In this document: positions 4,695 through 4,950 of the stretch, piece by piece
Numbering within the stretch: the first letter of the stretch is position 1
Layout of the letters: each line of letters opens with the position of its first letter
Source of the DNA: Escherichia coli
Lineage (GTDB): Bacteria > Pseudomonadota > Gammaproteobacteria > Enterobacterales > Enterobacteriaceae
Strand: one strand, 5' to 3'
Assembly (NCBI RefSeq): GCF_030013205.1
Contig: NZ_CP122648.1
Length of the DNA: 64,000 bases
Notes under the pieces: generated by a model
What the model saw: only the letters and a program-made list of their open reading frames with translations
Database searches by the model: none
What the model was told of the DNA's origin: nothing
Made by a program: the position numbers and the translations under genes

Positions 4695-4950
4695 GAATCC
4701 GCTTATTCTCAGGGCGGGGCGAAATTCCCCACCGGCGGTAAATCAACTCAGTTGAAAGCCCGCGAGCGCTTTGGGTGCGAACTCAAAGGACAGCAGATCC
4801 GGTGTAATTCCGGGGCCGACGGTTAGAGTCCGGATGGGAGAGAGTAACGATTCTGTCGGGCATGGACCCGCTCACGTTATTTTGGCTATATGCCGCCACT
4901 CCTAAGACTGCCCTGATTCTGGTAACCATAATTTTAGTGAGGTTTTTTTA
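4695..4950 (+). promoter_or_regulatory. FMN riboswitch (RFN element) and expression platform in the ribB leader
   Basis: Conserved RFN core segments read in sequence: AGGGCGGGGCGAAATTCCCCACCGGCGGTAAA ... GGTGCGAACTC ... GGACAGCAGATCCGGTGTAATTCCGGGGCCGACGGTTAGAGTCCGGATGGGAGAG, immediately 5' of ribB. Confidence 0.85.

Follow-up and report, generated by a model that had tools for sequence, protein, structure and literature searches.

The segment analysed here is the leader of ribB in a stretch of Escherichia coli DNA of 64 kb (contig NZ_CP122648.1; the window), where it lies between this gene and the divergent upstream gene ubiK (4280–4579, minus strand). An initial annotation, made from the letters of the sequence, had placed a flavin mononucleotide (FMN) riboswitch controlling ribB at 4695–4950, with an expression platform ending in a T-run just before the ribosome-binding site. 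The segment before ribB is an FMN riboswitch and no evidence contradicts this identification; it is the E. coli ribB FMN riboswitch itself, not merely a similar element, and is thus already known, historically also under the name SroG. Three features define the locus:

4701–4849, plus strand: FMN aptamer (RFN element, RF00050), from the covariance model, RefSeq annotation and helix covariation
4701, plus strand: transcription start, +1 of the published ribB riboswitch numbering, derived from PMC11571811; it is also the first base of the Rfam match
4953–5606, plus strand: ribB (3,4-dihydroxy-2-butanone-4-phosphate synthase), the regulated gene, from the open reading frame (ORF), TIGR00506 (287.7 bits, cut-off 177.45) and the RefSeq product name

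The FMN aptamer and its conservation

Scanning the whole window against Rfam 15 at gathering thresholds gave five matches. The one in the ribB leader is to RF00050 (FMN), at 4701–4849 on the plus strand and over the full length of the model (positions 1–138 of 138), with a score of 120.9 bits, where the gathering score is 66.2 (E = 1.1e-27 over the 64 kb window and 8.6e-30 in a local scan). This covariance model had been set beforehand as the check on the riboswitch call, with a score below threshold counting against it; the score obtained is nearly twice the gathering score, and the RefSeq annotation and the literature on the identical sequence agree with the call. The annotated interval 4695–4950 encloses the full-length aptamer. 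In the cmscan alignment every highly conserved (upper-case) consensus position is matched, and the one non-canonical pair is in a peripheral helix. The local scan, which was permissive and covered 4550–5050, returned the same match and a single other, a sub-threshold hit to AdoCbl-II (RF01689; 4779–4847, plus strand; 22.3 against 36.5 bits), which is nested in the FMN aptamer, has many non-canonical pairs and is regarded as a chance match.

Relatives of the leader were collected by an exact search for the 21-mer AGTCCGGATGGGAGAGAGTAA, taking one genome per species, which returned at least 120 stretches. All of the named organisms among the matches listed are Enterobacterales, from Escherichia to Yersinia, Serratia, Erwinia, Dickeya, Edwardsiella and Budvicia, and ribB follows 114–264 nt downstream in 120 of the 120 matches listed. 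An alignment of 112 complete leaders with that of the window (113 leaders) was used for all of the comparisons below. The junction sequences AGGGC, ACCG, GCAGA, GCCGAC and GGAUGGGAGA are present in the window, and the same positions are invariant in the alignment. Over the 41 pairs of the aptamer, 97.9% of the pair cells are standard and 14 pairs show compensatory changes (380 cells); none of 500 shuffles reached the observed values, and slid controls paired at 41–57%. The covariation falls mainly in two peripheral hairpins, and the core helices do not vary. Everything that can be tested from sequence for RF00050, namely the score, the helices, the junction sequences and the position in a leader, is therefore found here.

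The assignment of the downstream gene to ribB by the initial annotation also held up, the ORF scoring well above the TIGR00506 cut-off. The start codon of RibB lies 104 nt after the aptamer on the same strand. In RefSeq, genomes annotated with PGAP carry the feature ‘riboswitch / FMN riboswitch’ at the bases equivalent to 4701–4849; the feature table returned for the MG1655 RefSeq record held no riboswitch or sroG feature.

A 381 nt query (4580–4960 of the window) searched in 5426 complete E. coli genomes was present in 5425 of them, 4952 of which share at least 99% identity with it. Counted from the transcription start, the stretch from −86 to +282 is identical to that of K-12 MG1655; between the ubiK start and ribB codon 10 (403 nt) the sole difference is at 4613 (T here, C there), at −87 and upstream of the promoter. 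As the leader is identical to that of K-12 MG1655, experiments on the K-12 sequence apply to it directly. The numbering of those experiments was transferred from the 282 nt full-length transcript of Eschbach et al. (2024), which consists of the leader and ten ribB codons (PMC11571811); this puts the AUG at 253–255 (4953–4955) and +1 at 4701. As a cross-check, the published anti*-P1 pairing of 141–149 with 175–183 lands on AGAGUAACG (4841–4849) and CGUUAUUUU (4875–4883), which are perfectly complementary, and the mutated pairs G149:C175 and C148:G176 of PMC11571811 fit the same mapping. The identification adds little that is new: Rfam includes the element, the NCBI pipeline annotates it across virtually all E. 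coli genomes and its biochemistry has been worked out in detail. The experimental antibacterial ribocil acts on this riboswitch (PMC10085680).

Alternative helices around the Shine–Dalgarno sequence and the start codon

Between the aptamer and the first codons of ribB, and in the closing helix P1 of the aptamer itself, the following segments were distinguished:

4703–4710, plus strand: 5′ strand of P1, UUAUUCUC, pairing with 4840–4847 and also in the 5′ arm of anti-P1 (Rfam structure line, pair list)
4840–4847, plus strand: 3′ strand of P1, GAGAGUAA; 4841–4849 is also the 5′ arm of anti*-P1 (Rfam structure line, pair list, complementarity check)
4857–4870, plus strand: small GC hairpin directly 3′ of the aptamer, CGGG / CCCG with a 6 nt loop (in every fold; covariation)
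4860–4929, plus strand: C-rich, G-poor linker including the conserved ACUCCUAAGACUGCCCUG, a candidate Rho-utilisation (rut) region (GC skew; PMC11571811)
4875–4883, plus strand: 3′ arm of anti*-P1, CGUUAUUUU, U-rich, the first pause region (PMC11571811; complementarity to 4841–4849 verified)
4910–4925, plus strand: switching sequence, GCCCUGAUUCUGGUAA, the 3′ arm of anti-P1 (with 4703–4715) or the 5′ arm of the sequestering stem (with 4948–4961), both pairings verified base by base
4939–4942, plus strand: Shine–Dalgarno sequence GAGG (GUGAGG from 4937), read from the sequence
4943–4949, plus strand: T-run (U7), the spacer between the Shine–Dalgarno sequence and the AUG and the second pause region (sequence; published pauses, PMC5234074, PMC11571811)
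4948–4961, plus strand: 3′ arm of the sequestering stem, UUACCAUGAAUCAG, covering the AUG (4953–4955) and ribB codons 2–3 (13 pairs with 4913–4925)

In silico, the two strands of each of the helices P1, anti-P1, anti*-P1 and the sequestering stem complement each other fully. Anti-P1 pairs UCAGGGC (4709–4715) with GCCCUGA and UUAUU (4703–4707) with GGUAA. Leader folds were used with constraints and at nascent transcript lengths. When P1 is enforced, the best fold has the 13 pairs of 4913–4925 with 4948–4961, topped by 4930–4935 with 4939–4944 over the Shine–Dalgarno sequence. These helices cover both the Shine–Dalgarno sequence and the AUG and are mutually exclusive with anti-P1 (4910–4925 with 4703–4715), as a platform acting on translation demands. 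Enforcing P1 or anti-P1 gives folds of practically equal energy (−80.3 and −80.7 kcal/mol, respectively), and the minimum-energy folds of the nascent 230 and 247 nt transcripts contain anti-P1. With the polymerase stalled at 247, FMN affinity falls roughly 330-fold (PMC11571811), with which the predicted nascent folds agree.

FMN binding to the K-12 sequence has been measured, with Kswitch values of 23–206 nM depending on the transcript length and the probe (PMC11571811). In the same work FMN shielded two stretches from RNase H: 137–146, at the 3′ strand of P1 (Kswitch ∼176 nM), and 218–227, at the sequestering stem, which is 4918–4927 of the window (Kswitch ∼206 nM). Across the 113 leaders every pair of the basal sequestering stem is kept (100% paired; 11 pairs invariant, two varying by wobble only), and the anti-P1 helices are 99–100% paired; the arms of anti*-P1 are 83–97.5% paired, without compensatory change. 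The switching sequence 4910–4925 is invariant save for A/G at 4916, where the G of 22 sequences pairs by wobble in both alternatives. The support for the platform of sequestering stem and anti-P1 is thus conservation together with published probing and not compensatory change.

The sequence across the Shine–Dalgarno sequence, the T-run and the AUG reads UAGUGAGGUUUUUUUACCAUG. The Shine–Dalgarno sequence, which precedes the AUG by 10 nt, takes part in the apical helix of the sequestering hairpin (4930–4935 with 4939–4944). Contrary to the initial annotation, the T-run does not precede the ribosome-binding site but sits between GAGG and the AUG. In folds with and without constraints the run lies within a hairpin: its first two bases (4943–4944) are paired in the apical helix, 4948–4949 are in the basal stem and the remainder is unpaired. 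RNA polymerase pauses at 247–249 (4947–4949; PMC5234074, PMC11571811), and the half-life of this pause is reported to rise with FMN. In the 113 leaders UUACC immediately before the AUG is invariant and the spacer is always U/A-rich, although at least six consecutive T are found in only 63 of them and the run is interrupted by A or C in many. The riboswitch was recognisable from the raw sequence, with its anatomy corrected: the T-run is a Shine–Dalgarno–AUG spacer and pause site and not a terminator. The T-run is present at the end of the interval that had been drawn, as was said, but the functional element reaches about 11 nt further, to 4961 in ribB codons 1–3.

A platform ending in a T-run implies an intrinsic terminator of the kind known from the ribD (rib operon) switch of Bacillus subtilis, which has the same RF00050 aptamer and the same ligand and in which FMN likewise turns riboflavin biosynthesis off; its platform is an intrinsic terminator/antiterminator under kinetic control (PMC11571811). 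On this reading FMN would enable Rho-independent termination at a GC-rich hairpin and the T-run, ahead of the ribosome-binding site. There are indeed seven T at 4943–4949, the hairpin of 4913–4925 with 4948–4961 spans them, and a second U-rich tract (4877–4883) follows the small GC hairpin at 4857–4870. A terminator scan of the leader (4701–4952), however, found no hairpin-plus-U-tract site. The T-run comes after the Shine–Dalgarno sequence, within the loop and the 3′ arm of the hairpin, and does not follow a stem; its weak conservation also opposes this function, and the upstream U tract starts 6 nt past a stem of 4 bp. We therefore rejected an intrinsic terminator in the leader and consider a ribD-type switch very improbable. 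In contrast to ribD, ribB does without an intrinsic terminator and uses sequestration of the Shine–Dalgarno sequence and AUG together with Rho instead.

Two further ORFs overlapping the leader were rejected. That at 4862–5002 (46 amino acids), a candidate leader peptide, starts in the loop of the post-aptamer hairpin; its ATG is absent in 70 of the 113 leaders, and elsewhere the ORFs have 8–45 codons or vary in extent. The minus-strand ORF at 4783–4929 (48 amino acids), antisense to the aptamer, is without support.

Rho-dependent termination and the proposed mechanism

Over 4860–4929 G is scarce relative to C (GC skew −0.18 to −0.33), whereas the 3′ half of the aptamer has the opposite bias (+0.2 to +0.45); the composition of the linker fits a rut-like region. 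FMN makes 184–193 (4884–4893) more accessible, and recruitment of Rho has been proposed to occur there (PMC11571811). Besides the pause in the T-run, RNA polymerase pauses at 175 and 181 (4875 and 4881; PMC11571811), and the published pause sites coincide with the U tracts of the leader. A Rho termination score of 3.1 has been reported for ribB, the control of which is lost in a rho R66S mutant (PMC5499598), and the 3′ ends found in the leader have been attributed to Rho (PMC7815308). FMN binding, sequestration, pausing and Rho dependence are all taken from publications on the identical K-12 sequence, and on this published evidence the ribB leader would fit the class of leaders that sequester the Shine–Dalgarno sequence and are subject to Rho-dependent termination.

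How Rho enters has two answers. FMN might act on translation only, hiding the Shine–Dalgarno sequence and AUG, with Rho termination and mRNA loss following indirectly, as proposed for thiM. No feature of the platform is more conserved than the sequestering stem, indirect coupling was shown for thiM by Bastet 2017 (PMC5499598), and in the ribB leader the position of the rut site is inferred and the excess of C over G continues into early ribB (4940–4989). The same study, however, explicitly classes ribB as under direct control (Fig. 7A legend; PMC5499598). Furthermore, in a minimal single-molecule system free of ribosomes Rho terminates more on the ribB template when the ligand ribocil-C is present (PMC10085680), and a review describes FMN as unmasking a rut site (PMC12360218). 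A purely translational switch is accordingly unlikely.

Direct control has parallels in other 5′ leaders. In the Salmonella mgtA leader and in E. coli thiC, thiM and lysC a leader refolded by its ligand likewise alters the access of Rho, with a pause beside the start codon (PMC5234074, PMC5499598). These differ from ribB in their aptamers and ligands; within this group thiM is reported to be controlled indirectly, via translation, whereas mgtA, like ribB, is reported to be controlled directly (PMC5499598).

Very probably, then, 4701–4961 in full is the ribB FMN riboswitch, acting by sequestration of the Shine–Dalgarno sequence and AUG and by Rho-dependent termination. Transcription from the putative TTGCTG-17-TATAGT promoter would begin at 4701, and the first 149 nt would fold as the FMN aptamer. 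Binding of FMN would lock P1 (4703–4710 with 4840–4847), leaving 4910–4925 free to pair with 4948–4961 while 4930–4935 pairs with 4939–4944, and these pairings would bury the AUG and the Shine–Dalgarno sequence. In this FMN-bound state the C-rich leader RNA would be open to Rho, giving termination in the leader or in early ribB, which pausing in the U-run at 4947–4949 may aid. Without FMN, the P1 strands would be captured by anti*-P1 (4841–4849 with 4875–4883) and anti-P1 (4703–4715 with 4910–4925), no sequestering stem would form and ribB would be transcribed and translated.

The evidence for this mechanism has limits. The unconstrained fold of the 282 nt leader (−88.1 kcal/mol) has neither P1 nor anti-P1 and retains the sequestering hairpin, so that thermodynamic folding alone fails to reproduce the ON state; the fold matches neither of the published states and is unremarkable against shuffles (z = −0.19). 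In the 113 leaders the anti-P1 and sequestering helices do not vary, which leaves no covariation to prove them, and the MNQ codons of ribB account for part of the constraint on the 3′ arm of the sequestering stem. The invariance of P1 is uninformative because the 21-mer used in the search contained its 3′ strand. What speaks for the switching segment, as far as sequence comparison goes, is the strong conservation of a non-coding stretch between variable flanks rather than covariation. Aptamer identity, genomic context, complementarities and conservation, as given above, come from the present analysis.

The post-aptamer hairpin, the promoter and the genomic setting

In the small hairpin 3′ of the aptamer (4857–4860 with 4867–4870) all four pairs change on both sides, GC being replaced by AU in 19 sequences, for example. 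The hairpin lies within the loop closed by anti*-P1, ahead of the pauses at 175 and 181, where it may have a role. The T-run after CGTTA, which coincides with these pauses, is seven long in 51 of the 113 leaders and four long in E. coli (a 3 nt gap in the alignment). Conceivably, this post-aptamer module (the hairpin at 4857–4870 and the U tract at 4877–4883) has a regulatory role of its own, either as an FMN-tuned pause or attenuation checkpoint that differs between genera or as the 3′ end of a trans-acting SroG, but we think this quite unlikely. If true, it would add a layer to a textbook riboswitch and leave the identity of the element unchanged.

The name raises a broader possibility, namely that the main product is a stable small RNA (sRNA), SroG, released from the leader to act in trans, with cis control of ribB being secondary. 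The name sroG is still applied to the leader in constructs and strain-engineering papers, and premature 3′ ends do occur in the leader (PMC7815308). Against this, no trans target is known or indicated here, the element lies directly upstream of ribB in every one of the 120 matches listed, and the conserved parts beyond the aptamer are precisely the ones that complement the Shine–Dalgarno sequence and AUG of ribB. SroG as primarily a trans-acting RNA is thus extremely improbable, and cis control of ribB is the reading that we retain.

Two features flank the leader and ribB:

4666–4694, plus strand: putative ribB promoter, −35 TTGCTG (4666–4671), 17 bp spacer and −10 TATAGT (4689–4694), read from the sequence
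5628–5654, both strands: palindromic hairpin resembling a bidirectional intrinsic terminator, flanked by an A-run and a T-run (terminator scan; 12 pairs on the plus strand and 11 on the minus strand)

The −10 hexamer ends 7 nt before the published +1, and TTGC and TATAGT are kept in sequence and spacing in the sampled upstream regions of Enterobacterales, which suggests that the two hexamers are the ribB promoter. A simple promoter scan did not call the site because its −35 fits only three of the six consensus bases. The hairpin at 5628–5654 sits between the convergent ribB and fimbrial genes and is the only good terminator in the scan; it closes the ribB transcription unit and does not belong to the switch.

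The gene order in the window (3900–10634) is yqiK, yqiJ, glgS, ubiK, riboswitch–ribB and the yqi fimbrial genes, the last at 5660–6709, 6706–7455, 7462–9984 and 10071–10634, all on the minus strand. The ribB FMN riboswitch of K-12 (SroG; RF00050) is the same element, in the same ubiK–leader–ribB block and with the same RefSeq annotation, but the order of the flanking genes differs: in MG1655 (NC_000913.3, 3180000–3188000) the fimbrial operon is between ubiK and glgS, and yqiD and zupT come after ribB. The region 3900–6100 is matched over at least 80% of its length in only 993 of the 5426 complete E. coli genomes, and in the K-12-type genomes listed the match is confined to ∼4349–5604, that is to ubiK, the leader and ribB. 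These three look like a shared block, which is intact while its flanks have been rearranged among E. coli strains.

The other Rfam matches of the window lie apart from ribB. Tandem matches to SIB_RNA (RF00113) at 710–859 and 1086–1235 (plus strand; 139.4 and 143.4 bits), beside yqiK, are Sib antitoxin RNAs of type I toxin–antitoxin pairs. The Hfq-binding sRNA STnc490 (RF01405) is matched in full length at 21338–21461 (plus strand; 146.5 bits against a gathering score of 56), and the sRNA ES173 (RF02753) at 44639–44702 (minus strand; 99 bits against 90).
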